A stretch of 64,000 bases of DNA from Escherichia virus TH42: sequence record MT446413.1; one strand, written 5' to 3'. The translations under genes were made by a program, and so were the position numbers. Every line of letters starts with the position of its first letter. Position 1 is the stretch's first letter. The notes under the pieces were generated by a model. The model was not told where the DNA came from. It did no database searches and saw only the letters and a list, made by a program, of their open reading frames with translations. Of this stretch, positions 5,531-30,544 are shown piece after piece.

Positions 5531-5737
5531 TCAATAAAACGAACGTATTTCTTCCCACACATCATCTTGAAGACTTTTAAAACCCTGTAAAGCTGATTGG
5601 GTTCTCATGATAAAATCTTCAGAATGTTTATTGCGGTCAAGCATACTGACAAACTTGTCATAGCGGTTAATCTTCCACCGTAACTTTAAGTAGTCAGACT
5701 CGAGCTTTCTCAGCTTCTGTCGCTCAGTTACTGTCAT
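5531..5737 (-). CDS. hypothetical protein
   Basis: Start placed at internal ATG (MTVTERQKLRKLE...) preceded by AGGTGA SD; the longer track ORF (to 5836) would overlap the upstream gene by >100 nt. Confidence 0.3.
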   Translation of the reverse strand: MTVTERQKLRKLESDYLKLRWKINRYDKFVSMLDRNKHSEDFIMRTQSALQGFKSLQDDVWEEIRSFY

Positions 5738-6155
5738 CCTGATCACCTGCCAGATACGCTGTCCAGTCGCCAGATTCAACCAGAACATCTTGTTCTTCGT
5801 CGATATGATAAATCCATGCTTCCACAGTTTCACCACTATCCAGCACTACTGGAATTAGTGTACGATTGTAGAAAGTGTATGGATTGTCTTTACCACGATA
5901 ACCTTCCAGACCGTCATACGGACCTTCCAAACCAGCTTGAGTTGTTTCAAATACTTCCACACGAACAGGCTTGCCATTGCTGTCGTGCTCCAGAGACACA
6001 CTTGGGAAGTATGCTGTGCAATACTGATACAGGTTACAGTTGTTCACTGTCCAACCCTCACCAATAGACACACCACCGGCACGAGCATTGATAGCGTGGT
6101 TGTGTTGACCTTTTCTCAAGCTGCCGTAAGTTGCTACTAATACTTTATCAGACAT
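5724..6155 (-). CDS. gamma-glutamyl cyclotransferase-like (GGCT/AIG2 fold) protein
   Basis: 143 aa; N-terminal ATYGSL motif and size typical of GGCT family. Confidence 0.5.
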   Translation of the reverse strand: MSDKVLVATYGSLRKGQHNHAINARAGGVSIGEGWTVNNCNLYQYCTAYFPSVSLEHDSNGKPVRVEVFETTQAGLEGPYDGLEGYRGKDNPYTFYNRTLIPVVLDSGETVEAWIYHIDEEQDVLVESGDWTAYLAGDQDDSN

Positions 6156-6220
6156 TATATTACCTTTTGTGTTTCAGTTAAATTTGAACTAGCCCCCTCT
6201 TCCGAAGAGGCTAAAGCAAA

Positions 6221-6406
6221 TTATTCTACTTCGAAGTGTTTGATCACACCAGTCAACACGTCAGATTGGAATGTACCTACCAACTCTACTCCTCGGAAGA
6301 AGTTAACACTTGTTCCAAGTGATTCAAAGCGATCTGCTTGAATATCTAGAGATTGAATATTACCTTCTGAGTTTACTGTACGAAACATGATTGTGTATTT
6401 ATTCAC
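6221..6406 (-). CDS. hypothetical protein
   Basis: 61 aa ORF, co-oriented and tightly packed (stop overlaps next start). Confidence 0.35.
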   Translation of the reverse strand: MNKYTIMFRTVNSEGNIQSLDIQADRFESLGTSVNFFRGVELVGTFQSDVLTGVIKHFEVE

Positions 6407-6645
6407 AGAGTTGTTACTCCCTTATCTTCTTGTGCAATTGCGATGATACGCTCAACACATTCCATTGAATATTTATCACCTCGTTTAAGGAAGGTGACAA
6501 TTGCAGAGAACTGATTACCAATCATTCTCTTGTTTGTGATTCCAAACTCTTCACAGAGTTGGTTAATAGCTTTACGAGAACCAACAATCAGAGGTTCTTT
6601 TTGTTCGGTCATTCCACGACTGATCAAATCTTCGATAGACAACAT
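6403..6645 (-). CDS. hypothetical protein
   Basis: 80 aa ORF in operon context. Confidence 0.4.
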   Translation of the reverse strand: MLSIEDLISRGMTEQKEPLIVGSRKAINQLCEEFGITNKRMIGNQFSAIVTFLKRGDKYSMECVERIIAIAQEDKGVTTL

Positions 6646-6665
6646 TACAAATTCCTTTTGTTTAA

Positions 6666-7913
6666 TTACAGAGTTACTGCCACTTCACTACCTTCAACAG
6701 TTACAGACTCTAACTTACGAGGGTTGTGGACTTGTTGCGGATGAACCGGAACGTTCCAGCCACTGCGGTAGAAGTTACGACCATCGCAGAACAGAATGAC
6801 ATTGGCAGACATTGCATTAGGTTGCAGGTTGTTATGAACATGACGAATATCTGCAATCCAGTAACCACGAGACAACACATAACCAGTAGGTGCATTACGG
6901 ATTGTCTGAGTATTCATCTGACCTTCCAGTTGCATTTCTTCAGGAACTACATCCACTGAATCAACCGGCTGTGCGACTTGGCCTTCCAGTGCGAAGTTTT
7001 CATCATCAGCACTTTCACTGTCAGCAACCAATTCACCATCTCCATCTTCAATTGGAGCTTCAACAGGAGTCTGGTAAACCACTTTATACTGAGGAGTATA
7101 GAGAGGGTTTTGAGCTTTAACAAACTCAAGGATGTTGTGACGGTAGGTATCCAGAGTTGTACCAGTCAGGCCCGGTGCTGTATTAACTTCCAGTACCCAT
7201 GCTTCTCGACCTTTGGTAATGATATCAACTGCACCAAAATCCAGACCCATCGATTCAACGGCCTTCACTGCGTTGATCAGAGATGTATCGTTCGGAACAT
7301 CCGTAAAAGAGCTTGAGTAAACCCAACCAGTGTGATGGTTACGAACATCTTCACGATAGTTAGGGTCTTCACGATAACCATTACGACGAATTTTCTTCTG
7401 AACATAGGTGATTGCACCTTTGAACACATGGACACGCCATTCACGACGTGGGCCTTGAATACCTTTGGTGTACAGTTCAGCTTGACCAACTGAATCACGA
7501 GGCTCAACAACAATAATACCCGAACCAGAGTGACCAGTCAGTTCATGACGTTCATACACAATGTTGCCAGAGTTTGACCACTCCTGAGCAATCTCTTGAA
7601 CATCTGTATACTCAACAGTTTTAACACCTGCTTGGTCCATCACGCTGAAAGCACGACGTTTGTTCGCTGCCATGTGTAAGGCTGCGGTACGGTTAAGAAC
7701 AGTTGCAGAACCAAAGAAGGATTCAGGATAGCGGCGGTTTCCGTAGTTCACAACCACATCACCCTCACGAGAACGCCAGCGACTGTTCTCAGAAAGAAGA
7801 CCCATTACGTTAGCGTTGATACGTTCATCACGGATAGTATCACTAATGGCAGTTACCAGAGCGTTAACAGAATCAGAAGGGCCATACGGAAGAACACGGA
7901 TACGAGTAGTCAT
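6666..7913 (-). CDS. ATP-grasp family ligase
   Basis: 415 aa; ATP-grasp C-terminal signature DFGAVDIITKGREAWVLEVNTAPGL, upstream GSGIIVVE; acidic C-terminal extension. Confidence 0.65.
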   Translation of the reverse strand: MTTRIRVLPYGPSDSVNALVTAISDTIRDERINANVMGLLSENSRWRSREGDVVVNYGNRRYPESFFGSATVLNRTAALHMAANKRRAFSVMDQAGVKTVEYTDVQEIAQEWSNSGNIVYERHELTGHSGSGIIVVEPRDSVGQAELYTKGIQGPRREWRVHVFKGAITYVQKKIRRNGYREDPNYREDVRNHHTGWVYSSSFTDVPNDTSLINAVKAVESMGLDFGAVDIITKGREAWVLEVNTAPGLTGTTLDTYRHNILEFVKAQNPLYTPQYKVVYQTPVEAPIEDGDGELVADSESADDENFALEGQVAQPVDSVDVVPEEMQLEGQMNTQTIRNAPTGYVLSRGYWIADIRHVHNNLQPNAMSANVILFCDGRNFYRSGWNVPVHPQQVHNPRKLESVTVEGSEVAVTL

Positions 7914-19248: not shown

Positions 19249-19327
<79 letters not shown>

Positions 19328-22299: not shown

Positions 22300-22605
22300 T
22301 TAACCTTTGAGCGCATCCTCTGTTTCCTCATTCTGGCGTTTAATTTCTTCAGTGAGTTGCTTATTGAGATCTTGAATACGCTTAATCTCCCAACCCAAAG
22401 AAGCCAAACGATCATTACGTGCTTCAATTTGCTCCTGCATCTTAACCAATTTGGAACGAACATCAGCATTAAAGACTTCCTCTTGCTTAAGAAGGAACTC
22501 ATAACGACGCTTCCAGCTTGCTGACTTATTACTTAAAGCAATAAATCCCAGAGTAGAAATCGTTACAGTGAGTACGAGAAGGAACTTATAAACCTCTAAA
22601 GACAT
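22300..22605 (-). CDS. i-spanin-like membrane protein (N-terminal TM helix plus coiled coil)
   Basis: 101 aa; FLLVLTVTISTLGFIAL then heptad-rich charged segment; adjacent to cell-wall hydrolase gene. Confidence 0.4.
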   Translation of the reverse strand: MSLEVYKFLLVLTVTISTLGFIALSNKSASWKRRYEFLLKQEEVFNADVRSKLVKMQEQIEARNDRLASLGWEIKRIQDLNKQLTEEIKRQNEETEDALKG

Positions 22606-22668
22606 ATCTTTATCCTCTTAAAGTAAGATATTATAAGAAATATTATTTAGAATTTATTATTTCTAAAC

Positions 22669-23193
22669 TTAATTTCTATCAATAATTTTCAGAGGTCTAT
22701 ATACAGTCATTACCTCTGGTTCCGAATCACTACCACTTTTTGCAGAGAAAATCATAAGTAGGTGATTTATAAGGGAATTTAGTTTGTCAATCTTGGCACC
22801 TATGAACCAGTCACGGGCACTATTATTGAACACTAAATCACCACAATACATTGGATTGGTATACCACTTTGGCACCCCTTCGCTCTTACTCTGAAAGTAT
22901 GTACCGCTATACAAAGGCACATAGCTTTTCTTCAGTGCACGTCTTGCAAGCTGCTCGCTCTCCCTGATTGACTTCTTTGTCAGAGGATTATCATCACGAA
23001 TTAGCTTTACATAACGTTTAAAAGGCTTCTCCTTCTTTAATAAGACGGGTATCCACTCGAACTGGTTTCGTTGTTTTATAACCTGCTCGGCAGTCAGTTT
23101 TCGTTGTGACATTCTGTTTATTACGGTATCCGCTACTAATGCTTTGCAAGCGGTTGGCTGATTCCCTGCCTCATAATAAATAGTCAATGTCAA
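22669..23193 (-). CDS. SleB-type cell-wall hydrolase (candidate endolysin)
   Basis: 174 aa, TTG start; motifs ALVADTVINRMSQ, NQFEW, PLYSGTYF resemble Hydrolase_2 (SleB) family. Confidence 0.55.
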   Translation of the reverse strand: MTLTIYYEAGNQPTACKALVADTVINRMSQRKLTAEQVIKQRNQFEWIPVLLKKEKPFKRYVKLIRDDNPLTKKSIRESEQLARRALKKSYVPLYSGTYFQSKSEGVPKWYTNPMYCGDLVFNNSARDWFIGAKIDKLNSLINHLLMIFSAKSGSDSEPEVMTVYRPLKIIDRN

Positions 23194-24732: not shown

Positions 24733-24766
24733 AAAAGAAAAGGCGCTACCCTTTCGAATAGCGCCT
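24733..24766 (-). terminator. intrinsic terminator (minus strand) after 24787..25689
   Basis: Minus-strand AGGCGCUA-loop-UAGCGCCU followed by UUUCUUUUAC. Confidence 0.45.
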
Positions 24767-24786
24767 TATATGTTCTTTATTGTAGG

Positions 24787-25689
24787 TTATGCAGCTTGTT
24801 GGCGTGCTGCCATGATCTCGGCAGCTTTACGCAATACTTCTTCCTCGTCTGCCGCCGCTTTCTCGTTCGCTTTGACAGTAGAAGCTGTAGAGATACGACC
24901 GCGAAGGTTAGACAATTTTTCAGTCATTTCGTTGATCGCTTTTTCCATTTCATCAGCGTATGAGTCCAGCGATTCAAGCTCTTTAACTGAGGCATTGATC
25001 AGATAGTCATCGCTGATAGATACAGTTGATGCGGTTACTTTCTTAAGGAGTGAATCAAAAGTTTTCTTAACTTTGCCTACTTCTTCACTCAATGCGATAG
25101 TGTTATCAGAAGATGCACCGTTGCGCTCGTCTGCCAACAAGGCCGCTTCAATACGGATGGCAGCTAAACGATCAGTTAGAGCGTAAATATCCTGATTAAA
25201 GTTTTCGTTAACCTTCTGGTTAATCTGATTTGCTACCGGAACGTTGTCGTTGCAGCCTTTATAGAAAGCTGGATTATCGACCTGTACATCTTCACCTTTA
25301 GCAAAGCGTTCGAAGGAGTTAGACCAGCGGGCACGGTTTTGCTCCATTTTGGTTTTAACCTGTTCCGGTTTAGCATCTTCTTTCGCTTTCGCTTCACCTT
25401 CCAGATTAATCCATTTCTTTTTACCGTTCGCCCCGTCGCTGTTGTACTTGATAGGAGTGAGGAAAGAGATTGCAACCGCAATCACATCTAAATCACGGTA
25501 ACGCTCAGTCAGTAAGAAATCTACCGCCCCCTGCAATACATCCAGCTTCTTACCGTTAGCACGGAAGTGCTGCAAATGACCTAACAGGAAGTTAGAAACA
25601 TCTTGCTTAATCGCTGCGTTGTTGCTACGGATATTGTTAGCCAGTGCGTTAAAGCCAGATTCGTTAACCAGATTGAAAGATTTAGCCAT
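24787..25689 (-). CDS. hypothetical protein (first gene of leftward block)
   Basis: 300 aa ORF with AAGG SD; Ala/Lys/Glu-rich, probably helical; terminator hairpin immediately downstream. Confidence 0.5.
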   Translation of the reverse strand: MAKSFNLVNESGFNALANNIRSNNAAIKQDVSNFLLGHLQHFRANGKKLDVLQGAVDFLLTERYRDLDVIAVAISFLTPIKYNSDGANGKKKWINLEGEAKAKEDAKPEQVKTKMEQNRARWSNSFERFAKGEDVQVDNPAFYKGCNDNVPVANQINQKVNENFNQDIYALTDRLAAIRIEAALLADERNGASSDNTIALSEEVGKVKKTFDSLLKKVTASTVSISDDYLINASVKELESLDSYADEMEKAINEMTEKLSNLRGRISTASTVKANEKAAADEEEVLRKAAEIMAARQQAA

Positions 25690-26594
25690 GATAATTTACC
25701 TTTTAATTAAAACGCTCTATGCGCCGCTCTCTATGAGCTATTCAAGTCACAATGACTTAACACTAATCACTAACTATTAGTAACCAGTGGTAAATCAGGC
25801 GGACTTATCAGGAGTTAACCTTGCCGCCTAACTTTCCATGATGTTTCATCCGGTGGATTCTATTAATCGCTATAAACGAAGCCGATTTGCCAGCGATGAT
25901 TAATCATCATAATAAGGCAGTGTGCCCATCTCTAATTAGCTAACGTTCTAGCCGATGGTAATGCTGTTTACTTTACGTTCGCTCCGCGATACCCTTTTAT
26001 ATTAACTCTCTAAGCCGACTTATCACCTACTACGGGAAAGTATATGGCAAAGAGTCACTAACCGCCTGATAGATTGGCGTTTGATTATCTCTCTCGCGAT
26101 TTACTACAGTGCATTGTTATGTACTCACATCTTATTGACGTGTTTCAAACAACTTGCTTAGTAAACACTCACACTTAAACCTTATTATTAAATAGCAATT
26201 TGCTACTCTTTAACCTTCACACCGTCGCTCGCTATTGAGCGTTAATTCGTCGGGATTGACTACCCTGATTAACGTCTATTACCGTAGCACTTTACTAGCA
26301 CCGCCGCCGCTACCCTTTAACCGTAGGTGATTAGCTTAAGCCTTGCATGTACTCGATAACTTCGTTTATCAGTGGCATCGTTTCCAGTAAGGGAATGTAA
26401 AGCGGTTTTCTCTGATATTTTAGAGCGCCTTACATCGTTTTATCTGGCATAACTTGCAATGGTTATTATTGCTCGTTATGTTCAACCGATATAGGAAGAA
26501 GTTTAAATTGTTAAAGAGCGGTAAATCTATCGAAGTGCTTTCTCACTTCCCGCCACCGTTCGCCGTGGTTTCGCGTTTCACTAGTTGCCTAGTG

Positions 26595-26645
26595 AGTGCT
26601 CATTATGAATCATCCCGTTTAGCGTGTCAACCACTTTTTTTAAAT
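26595..26645 (-). promoter_or_regulatory. sigma70-type promoter (leftward)
   Basis: On minus strand: A-tract, -35 TTGACA (26625-26630), 17-bp spacer, -10 CATAAT (26602-26607). Confidence 0.45.
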
Positions 26646-26897
26646 CTTTTTCTCGTCTATTCTTTCGAATGACCAGTTAATCACACATTGGATTAACAAG
26701 ATTGTAAGCGGTTGCGCTTAACTTTCTGATTCATATTTTTAAAGAGCGGTGCGGTTTTCATGACTCCGCAAACATTTTCATTTTGAAGTCTACTTATGCA
26801 CTAACGGGGCGACTACACCCGACCTACACGCTGCACTATGTGCCACCTTTCCCGCGCTACGTCACTTAGGGGAACTGTTTAGCAAGTTGCCTTGCTT

Positions 26898-26947
26898 AGT
26901 GAACATTCTAACAGAGTGTTTCACCTTGTCAACTCTTTTTATCATCT
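26898..26947 (-). promoter_or_regulatory. sigma70-type promoter (leftward)
   Basis: On minus strand: A-rich upstream, -35 TTGACA (26927-26932), 16-bp spacer, -10 TAGAAT (26905-26910). Confidence 0.45.
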
Positions 26948-27129
26948 TCTTTTATTCTATTCCCTTATCTCGCGTGAATCTTTGCGAAAGGGCAAGATGA
27001 TAATTTGTTAAAGAGCGTTAAATCTGTCGCCGTCTTCCTCGGCTTCGTGCCTTGAGTGTTCCCACTCCTTCCAGTTTAAGCCTTTTTACATGATGCTAAT
27101 CATCTATCTGGAAGTGTTCTGTACTGCTG

Positions 27130-27180
27130 AGATCACATCTTATCATAGTGATTCGACGTGTCAACAACTATTTTTCGATT
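27130..27180 (-). promoter_or_regulatory. sigma70-type promoter (leftward, weaker -10)
   Basis: On minus strand: -35 TTGACA (27159-27164), 16-bp spacer, -10 TAAGAT (27137-27142). Confidence 0.35.
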
Positions 27181-27225
27181 AATGCATCTTGATAAACTAG
27201 CGACCATTGAGGCCGCTAACCTACC

Positions 27226-27465
27226 TTAGTTCATACGTTTAAAGGTTAAATCTTTATCCGTACTTACCAGCGATAACACCGCGATAGATTTGCCATTGTC
27301 GGCATCAGCTATCATTTCTTTCGCTTGCTGTAACGTGCTACCGACTATTCTCATAATCATGTTAGTAACGTTAATGCTAGTGCAAGTGATTTGCGTGTCT
27401 TTGCTTGAGAAGGTGTAAATGTTCATGGATAAATCCTCATTATGGCATGGTTGGGAGTTTATCAA
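27226..27465 (-). CDS. hypothetical protein
   Basis: 79 aa ORF, TTG start. Confidence 0.35.
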   Translation of the reverse strand: MINSQPCHNEDLSMNIYTFSSKDTQITCTSINVTNMIMRIVGSTLQQAKEMIADADNGKSIAVLSLVSTDKDLTFKRMN

Positions 27466-27928
27466 GATACACTAATCGAATTTTTAAAGAGCTAGTAAAC
27501 AAAGTTTGCCTTGAGAGAATCTAGTACACTGTTAAACGCTGATTTCTTTGAAGTATCGACCTTATAGGCCGCCAAATCCACGCATGAAAGAGGAATCGAC
27601 TAGGATAATCAACTAAGTGCCTTATAGTAATGACGCTTGTTAGCACCACTCCTAAGCAAACCTTGTTTTTAAAGAGCAAGGCTAAAAGTCTAGCCTATCA
27701 GGCTTGTTACCGACTGCATAACTAAACCTGAGATTCAAATATAAATCTATCAAGCAAAGAAAGCAATACCTTTTTCTAAAATAATTTCACTTTCTTTTAG
27801 GTATAGATGAGCACGCGCACGAATAACATCAGGGGAGGAAGAAAACAAGCCTTATAATCGAAAATAAGGCATACAGGAGGCGTTCTAACGAGCTAAACAG
27901 GGGCAAGATGTGCAATCACCTTAGAAAT

Positions 27929-27973: not shown

Positions 27974-28315
27974 TTACGGATTGGTGCAAGTGCCGTTACC
28001 GGATGATATTTCGTTCATCGACTCATCGAACAACGTCATACTAGACCGCATCATGTGATCAATAGTAATTTGTTTGCCTGTAGCTTCGTTAACAAGCATC
28101 GCATATTTGCTATCAACAACCTTGTTGTCGTAGTCATTCAGGTCAATCAATACTACCTTGCTGGACTTCTTGCCAGTGTCGTAATTTTCCATAAGGTAGG
28201 TACATTGCAGGCCATCGAGATTAGCCTCATTGAATACGGCAGCATAAGACACGGAAGAAACAGCGAACAAGGCAGCACATACAGCTAATTTAATTTTCAT
28301 AATCCAATCCTCCAA
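27974..28315 (-). CDS. secreted/periplasmic small protein
   Basis: 113 aa; signal-peptide-like MKIKLAVCAALFAVSSVSYAAVF (internal ATG probable start); terminator downstream. Confidence 0.45.
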   Translation of the reverse strand: MEDWIMKIKLAVCAALFAVSSVSYAAVFNEANLDGLQCTYLMENYDTGKKSSKVVLIDLNDYDNKVVDSKYAMLVNEATGKQITIDHMMRSSMTLFDESMNEISSGNGTCTNP

Positions 28316-29835: not shown

Positions 29836-30059
29836 TTAGTTACAGGTAACAGGTCAGACCATGCGGGAGTTAATTACCAGTCAAATAATTTACTCAAACA
29901 ACAAAAGAAAAAGACCAACAGCACGCTGAAAAAGAAAAAGATTAAAAGAAAGGATTAACATAATCACTTAAGTAAACAATAACCAGTCTAAACATACATA
30001 CATCAATAATCCACTCATAAATAATCACATAAGTTATTACATTCAAACTATGGGGAGTG

Positions 30060-30082
30060 TGTGGGTTGATATAATTGCATGG
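30060..30082 (+). promoter_or_regulatory. extended -10 promoter (rightward)
   Basis: TGaTATAAT at 30067-30075. Confidence 0.4.
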
Positions 30083-30544
30083 TGTTACCATGTGGGTATC
30101 ATTAATGTTCTTACTATTAATACCGGTTAGTTATAGTCTTCTATTAGTATGCCTGTACAGTACATCAGAGTCTAGCCTTTCATCCCTTCTCAACATGAGT
30201 AAGAGAAATACGGGTAGGAAATCACTGGTTAGATATACATGGGTAGATTCGCATTACTAGATAATGCTCATGGGTAAATAATGCATGTCTAATATCAATG
30301 GGTAGGGTATTTATGGGTAGGTGTGCCACTGAACGCAGATAGGGCAAGGCTTAGAGCTTAAAGGCTGATTGATTTCCTAAAGGCGATTGCATTCCCTATA
30401 ACCCTTTTTTAAATGAGGACTCCCCCTTTTACCAAAACACGCTCGGAGGGGCTAGGTCCACTCGGTCAAATCAGAATTTTAAACCCTTATATATAACTAT
30501 ATGCCCCAACGTTAGTTGTGGATTTAAGAGTGAGGAACAACTTT

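Follow-up and report, generated by a model that had tools for sequence, protein, structure and literature searches.

Serial rrn-type boxA elements and a large structured RNA in a gene-free stretch of Escherichia virus TH42

Introduction

What does a stretch of ~1.5 kb without genes contribute to the genome of a virulent coliphage? We addressed this question for positions 25690-27225 (hereafter, the interval) of a 64,000-nt stretch of Escherichia virus TH42 (sequence record MT446413.1; hereafter, the window), where the interval lies directly upstream of a leftward gene encoding a gp124 homologue. A first-pass annotation, made from the letters of the DNA, had found no plausible open reading frame (ORF) on either strand, and our analysis agrees: the longest ORFs in the interval are ≤72 amino acids (aa), and none of them is conserved in position or common to all 23 close relatives. 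We report here that repeats in and beside the interval are rrn-type boxA elements and that the ~0.9 kb leader of gp124 forms a large structured RNA for which selection acts on the leftward strand. Taken together with the promoters and the gp124 gene, we consider it likely that the interval holds both the control region and the RNA gene of an early transcription unit that is built like a ribosomal RNA (rRNA) operon, is antiterminated by Nus factors, and makes a functional long RNA.

The interval was matched in 70 phage records by megablast and in 97 by blastn, all of them from Escherichia coli or Shigella podophages of the subfamily Gordonclarkvirinae (Kuravirus, Suseptimavirus, and Nieuwekanaalvirus; phiEco32-like), with Escherichia virus TH34 as the closest match (96.5% identity). 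Almost every annotator of these relatives left the homologous stretch gene-free, and the spacer has so far been treated as empty DNA with three promoters. The phage phiEco32 serves as a model of how phages control host transcription (through the gp36 sigma factor and gp79), and its relatives are under development for therapy. Comparisons below are based on 23 close relatives, with pairwise identities of 64-97% in the stretch upstream of gp124, and nine distant, metagenomic relatives, for a total of 32.

Results

Repeats in the interval are rrn-type boxA elements

The motif TKTTAAAGAGC occurs five times in the 64 kb, always on the plus strand, compared to 0.14 occurrences expected by chance. 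On the transcribed (minus) strand, these are five exact copies of GCTCTTTAAMA, clustered within 1.2 kb and found nowhere else in the window; this sequence, GCTCTTTAA(C/A)A, is the boxA of the E. coli rrn operons, the loading site for NusB/NusE. Relative to the boxA consensus (GCUCUUUAACAA), the copies at 27016-27005 and 26519-26508 match at 12/12 positions (to GCTCTTTAACAA), and the other three match at 11/12. The first-pass annotation had counted five to six copies in the region, two of them extended. Five were found, of which only three lie inside the interval (26509, 26737, and 27006) and two just to the right of it (27482 and 27667); the two extended copies align over 29 nt with 90% identity.

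The similarity to rrn continues past boxA itself. The E. coli rrn antiterminator (cac-boxA-spacer) is given as CACugcucuuuaacaauuua (PMC2724277), and a direct reading of the rrnB leader of strain MG1655 gave this sequence too (GGCACTGCTCTTTAACAATTTATCAG). The copy nearest to gp124, copy E, is identical to boxA and spacer of E. coli rrnB and rrnG over 16/16 consecutive bases (GCTCTTTAACAATTTA), and in one distant metagenomic relative (L032), the identity to rrnB extends to 19/19 (ACTGCTCTTTAACAATTTA).

Both the sequence and the orientation of the element are conserved. Within ≤2.4 kb upstream of gp124, the 23 close relatives carry 95 boxA copies in the sense orientation and none in antisense, and the nine distant relatives carry 25 and none, so that the 32 genomes total 120 sense copies and not one in antisense. 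Two boxA positions are fixed in the close relatives, at ~830 and ~1060 nt before the gp124 start codon, the latter being that of copy D (23/23 genomes); the remaining copies shift together with promoters in a zone that is otherwise only 30-60% identical. In TH42, boxA follows the estimated start sites of the promoters P1-P3 (Table 1) by 76-150 nt, and in the relatives it follows promoters by 25-150 nt. Each promoter has a boxA downstream of it, predicted promoters lie upstream of the boxA copies, and ~0.8 kb of untranslated RNA comes after them. It is this consensus match, the position in a leader, and the selective conservation of motif and orientation that identify the repeats as rrn-type boxA.

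A boxB-like hairpin (helix 4 of the RNA described below) precedes copy E, and hairpins also precede copies A and D. In helix 4, three of the six pairs show double compensatory changes, with up to four pair types at the outer pairs, and 100% of cells are paired. The order of a boxB-like hairpin followed by boxA is that of rrn and not that of lambda. The first-pass annotation had proposed that the repeats may bind a host or phage protein. Because they are rrn-type boxA, the expected partner is host NusB/NusE, and binding would take place on the RNA rather than on the DNA.

Outside this lineage, the 16-mer GCTCTTTAACAATTTA is present in at least 120 viral contigs of IMG/VR, and among those examined, only a few are host rrn leaders. 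In PM135, a T5-like Proteus phage, five boxA copies (positions 5600-7100 of the locus) stand at the head of divergent early operons, each copy pointing in the direction of its operon, and these copies adjoin the gene for the pre-early “A2 protein.” Several jumbo-size IMG/VR contigs (125-310 kb; among loci L041-L119) also carry a boxA copy. Judging by these occurrences, virulent phages may commonly have serial rrn-type boxA.

The gp124 leader is a large structured RNA

We used RNAalifold on the alignment of the 23 close relatives, which predicted 256 pairs, and we kept and counted the 230 that lie downstream of the estimated P3 start. These form 39 helices, and 99.1% of the 5,288 cells are standard pairs. 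Compensatory double changes occur at 79 pairs (356 cells). When the structure was slid by 1-3 columns as a control, only 8-12 pairs showed double changes and only 34-46% of cells could pair; when columns were shuffled, 38 pairs showed double changes, and 0/500 shuffles reached the observed values. The Alifold energy is -241.8 kcal/mol for the transcribed strand and -154.6 kcal/mol for its complement, and G-U combinations occur in 543 cells compared to 18 cells with A-C. The compensatory changes and the excess of G-U over A-C indicate selection on one single strand, the transcript. The TH42 leader folded alone gives z = -5.45. The suggestion in the first-pass annotation that the 0.9 kb before gp124 may encode a leader or a non-coding RNA is thus borne out by covariation.

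The RNA is organized into two large domains, each closed by long-range pairing, and a 3′ row of hairpins (Table 1). Domain I contains a 26-bp composite arm (helices 12-13), and an invariant hairpin lies between the 300-nt and 280-nt domains. Among the 23 close relatives, ~56% of alignment columns in the non-coding stretch are invariant, which is on par with the neighboring protein gene. Unpaired columns are invariant as often as paired ones (55% and 52%, respectively), suggesting tertiary contacts or bound partners.

In distant relatives, alignment by sequence only retains 75-83% of pairs for the intermediate genomes and 54-56% for the most distant ones, compared to 35-45% in controls. With retention this low, a structure-aware model was needed, and we built a covariance model (R1) for the 3′ domain only (helices 34-39, 36 pairs). 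Within the window, R1 matches only at the expected site (25706-25835). It gives a significant match directly upstream of the gp124 homologue in 9/9 distant loci; one of these loci has an additional, chance-level match elsewhere (E = 0.97). In the 3′ domain of the distant relatives, double changes occur in 31/36 pairs, and 95.6% of cells are paired.

The RNA was not assigned to any known family. A search of the whole window with Rfam 15 at gathering thresholds returned one tRNA match only, outside the region, and a search of the region at E values up to 10 returned five chance-level matches of 12-18 bits. No Rfam 15 model, including those for GOLLD, ROOL, OLE, introns, RNase P, tmRNA, and riboswitches, reached its gathering threshold in the region, and a tRNA/tmRNA scan found none. 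When 5,426 E. coli genomes were searched with the RNA region by blastn, no match was obtained, indicating that the RNA is not derived from a host rrn operon or any other host locus. The tRNA match elsewhere in the window (19249-19327, minus strand; 36.4 bits, with a gathering score of 29) was not called by ARAGORN and may be a divergent or degenerate phage tRNA.

Short-motif counts were made for the RNA at 25690-26596 (minus strand). AGGAG and GGAGG are both absent, and GGA occurs five times compared to 15.8 times expected. GATC is scarce in the interval as well, at 0.65 per kb compared to 2.27 per kb in the window. Such deficits may indicate that sites for ribosomes, CsrA, and Dam are avoided. 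A role of the RNA as a sponge for CsrA or ribosomes was rejected, as GGA and Shine-Dalgarno-like motifs are depleted and not enriched.

Three published-type promoters precede the RNA

As described in the first-pass annotation, the minus strand carries three sigma70 promoters in which TTGACA is combined with TAAGAT, TAGAAT, or CATAAT at a spacing of 16-17 nt, matching the consensus at 10-11 of 12 positions; their -35 elements start at 27164, 26932, and 26630. The sequence that they were said to share in three copies holds for two, which read GTTGACAC, whereas the middle one reads GTTGACAA. P3, with an estimated start near 26596, is conserved in all 23 close relatives. A loose promoter scan showed no overall enrichment (6 sites compared to 18 expected), yet the four top-ranking sites of the 7 kb covered all belong to the minus strand and precede leftward genes.

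The paper on phage SU10 describes three sigma70 promoters in the homologous spacer, like those of phiEco32, and its Table S2 lists the homologue of P3 (promoter 73511-ttgacagcgaaaacaacatgattcataatgagcaca). P3 of the window reads TTGACACGCTAAACGGGATGATTCATAATGAGCAC and is homologous to this SU10 promoter. With consensus -35 and -10 hexamers upstream of the gp124 homologue and homology to the published sites, the three promoters are of the phiEco32 type, and the leftward early cluster that had been predicted from the sequence agrees with those of SU10 and phiEco32. Since these have been published, the promoter cluster is not new.

A hairpin, UCACUAG-GCAA-CUAGUGA, could form at 26575-26596 (minus strand), over the ~20 nt with which a transcript from the estimated P3 start would begin. 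In relatives, where the sequence differs and the alignment has indels, pairing is possible at this position too. The hairpin may act as a 5′-end stabilizer.

RNA and gp124 are inherited together

Directly after gp124, a terminator-like hairpin is followed by a T-run (Table 1), and in phage SU7 a terminator is annotated at the same place after the gp124 homologue. The transcription unit is therefore delimited as P1-P3, boxA, the RNA, gp124, and the terminator. The RNA (by blastn) and gp124 (by tblastn) are each present in 97 records of the phage database. A protein search of Logan and ENA assemblies identified gp124 homologues down to 45% aa identity, of which nine were fetched with their loci. 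The RNA is always upstream of gp124, in the 97 phage genomes as well as in 9/9 distant relatives. In each of the nine distant loci, no genes are called over 1.4-3.4 kb before the gp124 homologue, and promoters and boxA lie there at corresponding distances, along with a profile-HMM match to the RNA. IMG/VR contains only five contigs with this RNA.

In six of the metagenomic loci (L030, L032, L034, L035, L036, and L039), ~3 kb without gene calls precede the gp124 homologue. The RNA and the promoter/boxA modules account for about half of this length, and the remainder probably includes genome ends.

Salmonella phage 7-11 has been described as having an unexplained need for antitermination. We found no boxA in its rightmost 6 kb and no match to the model of the RNA 3′ domain.

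Features of the locus and neighboring elements

Table 1. Elements of the gp124 transcription unit and adjoining features, in window coordinates
Feature	Position	Strand	Description
boxA copy A and hairpin	hairpin 27696-27679, boxA 27677-27666	-	GCTCTTTAAAAA; upstream of interval
boxA copy B	27481..27492	-	GCTCTTTAAAAA; abuts 5′ arm of the long stem enclosing ORF66
ORF66 cassette	27174..27480	-	66-codon ORF (27426-27226) within ~25-bp predicted long-range RNA stem
P1, predicted early sigma70 promoter	27137..27164	-	TTGACA, 16-nt spacer, TAAGAT, TG-extended; A-tract upstream; 10/12
boxA copy C	27005..27016	-	GCTCTTTAACAA, 12/12; ~113 nt downstream of estimated P1 start
P2, predicted early sigma70 promoter	26905..26932	-	TTGACA, 16-nt spacer, TAGAAT, TG-extended; 11/12
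boxA copy D	26736..26747	-	GCTCTTTAAAAA, 11/12
P3, predicted early sigma70 promoter	26602..26630	-	TTGACA, 17-nt spacer, CATAAT; AAAAAAAGTGG upstream; 11/12
Large structured non-coding RNA (gp124 5′ leader)	25711..26596	-	230 consensus pairs, 39 helices
boxB-like hairpin (helix 4)	26532..26549	-	NNGUG-AGAAAG-CACNN, 12 nt 5′ of boxA
boxA copy E and spacer	26504..26519	-	GCTCTTTAACAATTTA; ~76 nt after estimated P3 start
RNA domain I (~300 nt)	26209..26507	-	Closed by long-range helix 5 (26507-26495 with 26222-26209)
RNA domain II (~280 nt)	25909..26188	-	Closed by helices 18-20 (22 bp; 26188-26161 with 25971-25909)
RNA 3′ domain	25711..25908	-	Hairpin row, helices 31-39; ends 22 nt before gp124 ATG
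gp124 homologue	24787..25689	-	300 aa, PHROG 13018; sole protein gene of the unit
Strong intrinsic terminator-like hairpin	24740..24767	-	12 pairs then T-run, directly after gp124

The stem around ORF66 consists of 34-nt inverted repeats (27480-27447 with 27207-27174; z = -6.2) and begins directly after boxA copy B. Its predicted fold resembles that of an RNase III site. Seven of the 23 close relatives carry the cassette in nearly identical form and the other 16 lack it, a distribution like that of a mobile or recently exchanged module.

Farther to the right, a 113-aa ORF (27974-28315, minus strand) matches PHROG 13168, “terminase,” and is annotated as a terminase in several relatives. It is far below terminase size, lies among early genes, and has no Pfam match; the label is probably a propagated misannotation.

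Discussion

How the unit might work

From sequence and comparison, we infer Nus binding, antitermination, a chaperone effect, and a function of the RNA, as follows. Host sigma70 polymerase would start at three tandem strong promoters with A-tract, UP-like upstream sequences, and each transcript would carry an rrn-type boxA within 25-150 nt, the proximal copy behind the boxB-like hairpin. The nascent boxA would bind host NusB/NusE (S10), which together with NusA, NusG, and SuhB would convert the polymerase into an antitermination/chaperone complex of the rrn type. Such a complex could have two effects: the polymerase would cross ~0.9 kb of untranslated RNA without Rho-dependent termination, and the 5′ strand tethered by boxA would be kept beside the polymerase until the distant 3′ strand of its helix emerges. 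The product would be the conserved multi-domain RNA of ~890 nt, followed by gp124 and the terminator, and the RNA would be functional by itself, in trans or as a ribonucleoprotein, possibly with gp124.

In rrn, boxA and spacer with a few upstream residues suffice against Rho-dependent terminators, without N protein (PMC2724277), and boxA guards the long, untranslated transcripts of CRISPR arrays against Rho (PMC7665894). Formation of the 16S stem is promoted by the Nus/SuhB complex, which holds boxA to the polymerase in a loop (PMC4807359). For the phage unit, the chaperone effect is probably more important than the escape from Rho, and the placement of boxA copies against arms of long-range helices supports it. 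Copy E has as its 3′ flank the 5′ arm of helix 5, a helix with a span of 290 nt that closes the ~300-nt domain; copy B borders directly on the 5′ arm of the ~25-bp stem around the 240-nt ORF66 cassette; and after copy D comes a weaker predicted helix with a span of 120 nt.

Several points weigh against this explanation. No GU-rich element resembling boxC (UGUGUGGG) was read in the sequence after any boxA copy; in rrn, boxB and boxC are both dispensable. The protein gives no functional clue, as gp124 has no Pfam match and only PHROG families without assigned function; its AlphaFold2 model (mean predicted local distance difference test score of 82) has no fold match in the PDB either (best E = 1.3). 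The consensus structure was predicted from the same alignment that was used for the pair counts, and the alignment of distant relatives was fitted to the model and hence leans towards the structure. The transcript is G-rich and not C-rich, with more C than G in only 2/83 sliding windows, so it may be an intrinsically poor substrate for Rho, like rRNA. BoxA could then matter more for folding or speed than for antitermination, and an RNA with this much structure could simply be a stabilizing or regulatory 5′ untranslated region (UTR). A purely passive leader is unlikely, given the size of the RNA, its domain organization, and its conserved loops.

We also suggest, with considerable doubt, a wider interpretation, in which the locus is a miniature mimic of an rRNA operon that hijacks Nus/SuhB without an N-like factor for the synthesis and folding of an abundant, ornate RNA of ~0.9 kb very early in infection; the RNA, with or without gp124, would aid host takeover, and serial boxA would be an unrecognized general strategy of virulent phages. 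The takeover role might consist of titrating Nus factors, ribosomal proteins, RNases, or a defense system that senses RNA.

Alternative explanations

The structured RNA could be only a cis-acting 5′ UTR of gp124, serving mRNA stability, shielding from RNases or Rho, or the timing of translation, with boxA securing read-through. The RNA ends 22 nt before the gp124 start codon with no strong terminator between them, the two are strictly co-inherited, and the terminator right after gp124 closes the unit, all of which would be expected of a UTR. However, ~890 nt with 39 helices and two long-range-closed domains far exceed the needs of known bacterial leaders, and loops and junctions are as conserved as stems, suggesting tertiary contacts or ligands. 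In addition, the ribosome-binding site of gp124 lies outside the conserved helices, and only the 3-bp helix 1 touches the start region. We regard a role limited to that of a UTR as a serious but doubtful possibility.

It is very unlikely that the GCTCTTTAA repeats act instead at the level of DNA, bound by a regulator from phage or host that might, for example, repress the early promoters, with a merely coincidental likeness to boxA. Such a role was proposed in the first-pass annotation, and it agrees with the location of the copies among the promoters, including some in relatives that lie ~48 nt upstream of a promoter. An identity of 16-19 nt to rrn boxA and spacer would nevertheless not be expected by chance, and the strict sense orientation and the placement in transcribed leaders fit an RNA signal. 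The same element also heads divergent early operons, outward on each strand, in the unrelated Proteus phage PM135.

The first-pass annotation had further raised the possibility of a replication origin, packaging site, or genome terminus. This is a long conserved non-coding stretch near one genome end, and its strong promoters could prime initiation by R-loops, as strong promoters do at T7 and T4 origins, which would make a transcription-activated origin conceivable. The genome end itself maps elsewhere. The 275-bp terminal repeat of phage PAS59 aligns to 29974-30240, ~2.7 kb to the right of the interval, and a homologue of the right end of phiEco32 lies at ~30389-30453. GC skew and gene orientation switch at the terminal-repeat homologue. 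With these end homologues and the switch inside it, the window spans the joined genome ends, as in an assembly that is permuted or derived from a concatemer; the interval therefore lies 2.7-4.5 kb inside the early-gene end and is not the end itself. As for an origin, we found no DnaA boxes, no AT enrichment (0.59 compared to a window mean of 0.57), and no iterons except boxA, which is negative evidence only. The compensatory changes and the asymmetry between G-U and A-C show selection on a single strand, that of the transcript. We therefore consider a primarily DNA-based role very improbable indeed, and the region may have a secondary role as an origin. The AT-richest 100 nt of the window (22590-22690; 83% AT) lie inside the leftward early gene block, and an unwinding element or origin would more plausibly be placed there than in the interval.

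That small protein genes are hidden in the region, overlooked by ORF finders, is barely credible: six to nine tiny ORFs are called there in phage 101114UKE3 and short antisense ORFs recur in several relatives, but no ORF is common to all relatives, most annotators left the region empty, Shine-Dalgarno-like motifs are depleted as described above, and variable columns are distributed evenly over the three codon phases (126/138/134, compared to 80/50/245 in the adjacent gp124), the pattern of a non-coding stretch.

Novelty and implications

In the searchable literature, which does not extend to the primary phiEco32 transcription papers, we found nothing on the repeats or on an RNA in this spacer. 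The serial rrn-type boxA in the early leader of a virulent coliphage, the ~890-nt RNA, and their combination appear to be new, whereas the promoters were known. If our explanation is true, a virulent phage uses the antitermination/chaperone signal of host rRNA directly, without a factor of the lambda N type, which would explain simply how Rho fails to terminate long early transcripts, even an untranslated one. It would also place a new family of large structured RNAs, of the GOLLD/ROOL class, in a genetically tractable E. coli phage. For annotators and phage engineers, the locus is a warning that this “gene-free” stretch is not neutral ground for the insertion of a payload.

Comparison with known systems

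The nutL and nutR sites of lambda share with this locus a phage early transcript that carries boxA and, here as a prediction, the recruitment of Nus factors. The lambda boxA is the weaker CGCUCUUA, is followed by boxB, and requires the N protein (PMC2724277), whereas the boxA copies described here have the full rrn consensus with CUUUA, would work without N, and have the hairpin 5′ and not 3′ of boxA. A lambda-type nut site does not fit this order of elements and the rrn form of boxA. Among the eight neighboring proteins, the only ones searched for an N-like protein, none has a Pfam or annotated PHROG match of that kind.

The large RNAs GOLLD, ROOL, OLE, and raiA fall into the same size class of 0.5-0.9 kb and likewise have many covarying helices, conserved loops, an association with phages, and no assigned function. 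Unlike them, the RNA described here is not recognized by any Rfam 15 model even at E = 10, is associated with boxA and a single protein gene, and occurs in one coliphage lineage and its metagenomic relatives only.

The early region of T7 has tandem A1, A2, and A3 promoters, an untranslated leader, and RNase III stems around its early genes. Both phages have three tandem strong promoters for host polymerase near the early-gene end of the genome and an untranslated leader before the first gene, and both have a small early gene (here, ORF66) enclosed by a stem, which in TH42 is ~25 bp and RNase III-like. The T7 leader is a few hundred nt long and, to our knowledge, is not known as a conserved multi-domain RNA or as a carrier of boxA; the leader described here is ~890 nt long, with 39 covarying helices.

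In CRISPR arrays (PMC7665894; Baniulyte et al. 2017, PMC5725501), as in the phage unit, a consensus boxA lies between the promoter and a long untranslated transcript, which without boxA would be open to Rho. The phage unit differs in that its RNA is one large folded molecule and not a repeat array, in that it belongs to an early operon, and in that it has multiple boxA copies.

In layout, the unit resembles the E. coli rrn leader, which consists of promoters P1 and P2 with an UP element, boxB-boxA-boxC, and the RNase III stem of 16S, and on which the complex of NusA, NusB, NusE, NusG, SuhB, and S4 forms. Shared features are the tandem strong sigma70 promoters with A-rich upstream tracts, the order of hairpin and then boxA, the identity of boxA and spacer over 16-19 nt, and the position of boxA directly before a 5′ arm whose long-range pairing encloses a large structured domain that is not translated. 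The phage RNA has no sequence similarity to rRNA or to E. coli DNA and no boxC, and its unit has three to five serial boxA copies, a protein gene after the RNA, and a virulent phage as its carrier. BoxA/Nus elements and large ornate RNAs are each of a known kind; an rRNA-operon-like unit in a lytic phage would be a new combination of the two.

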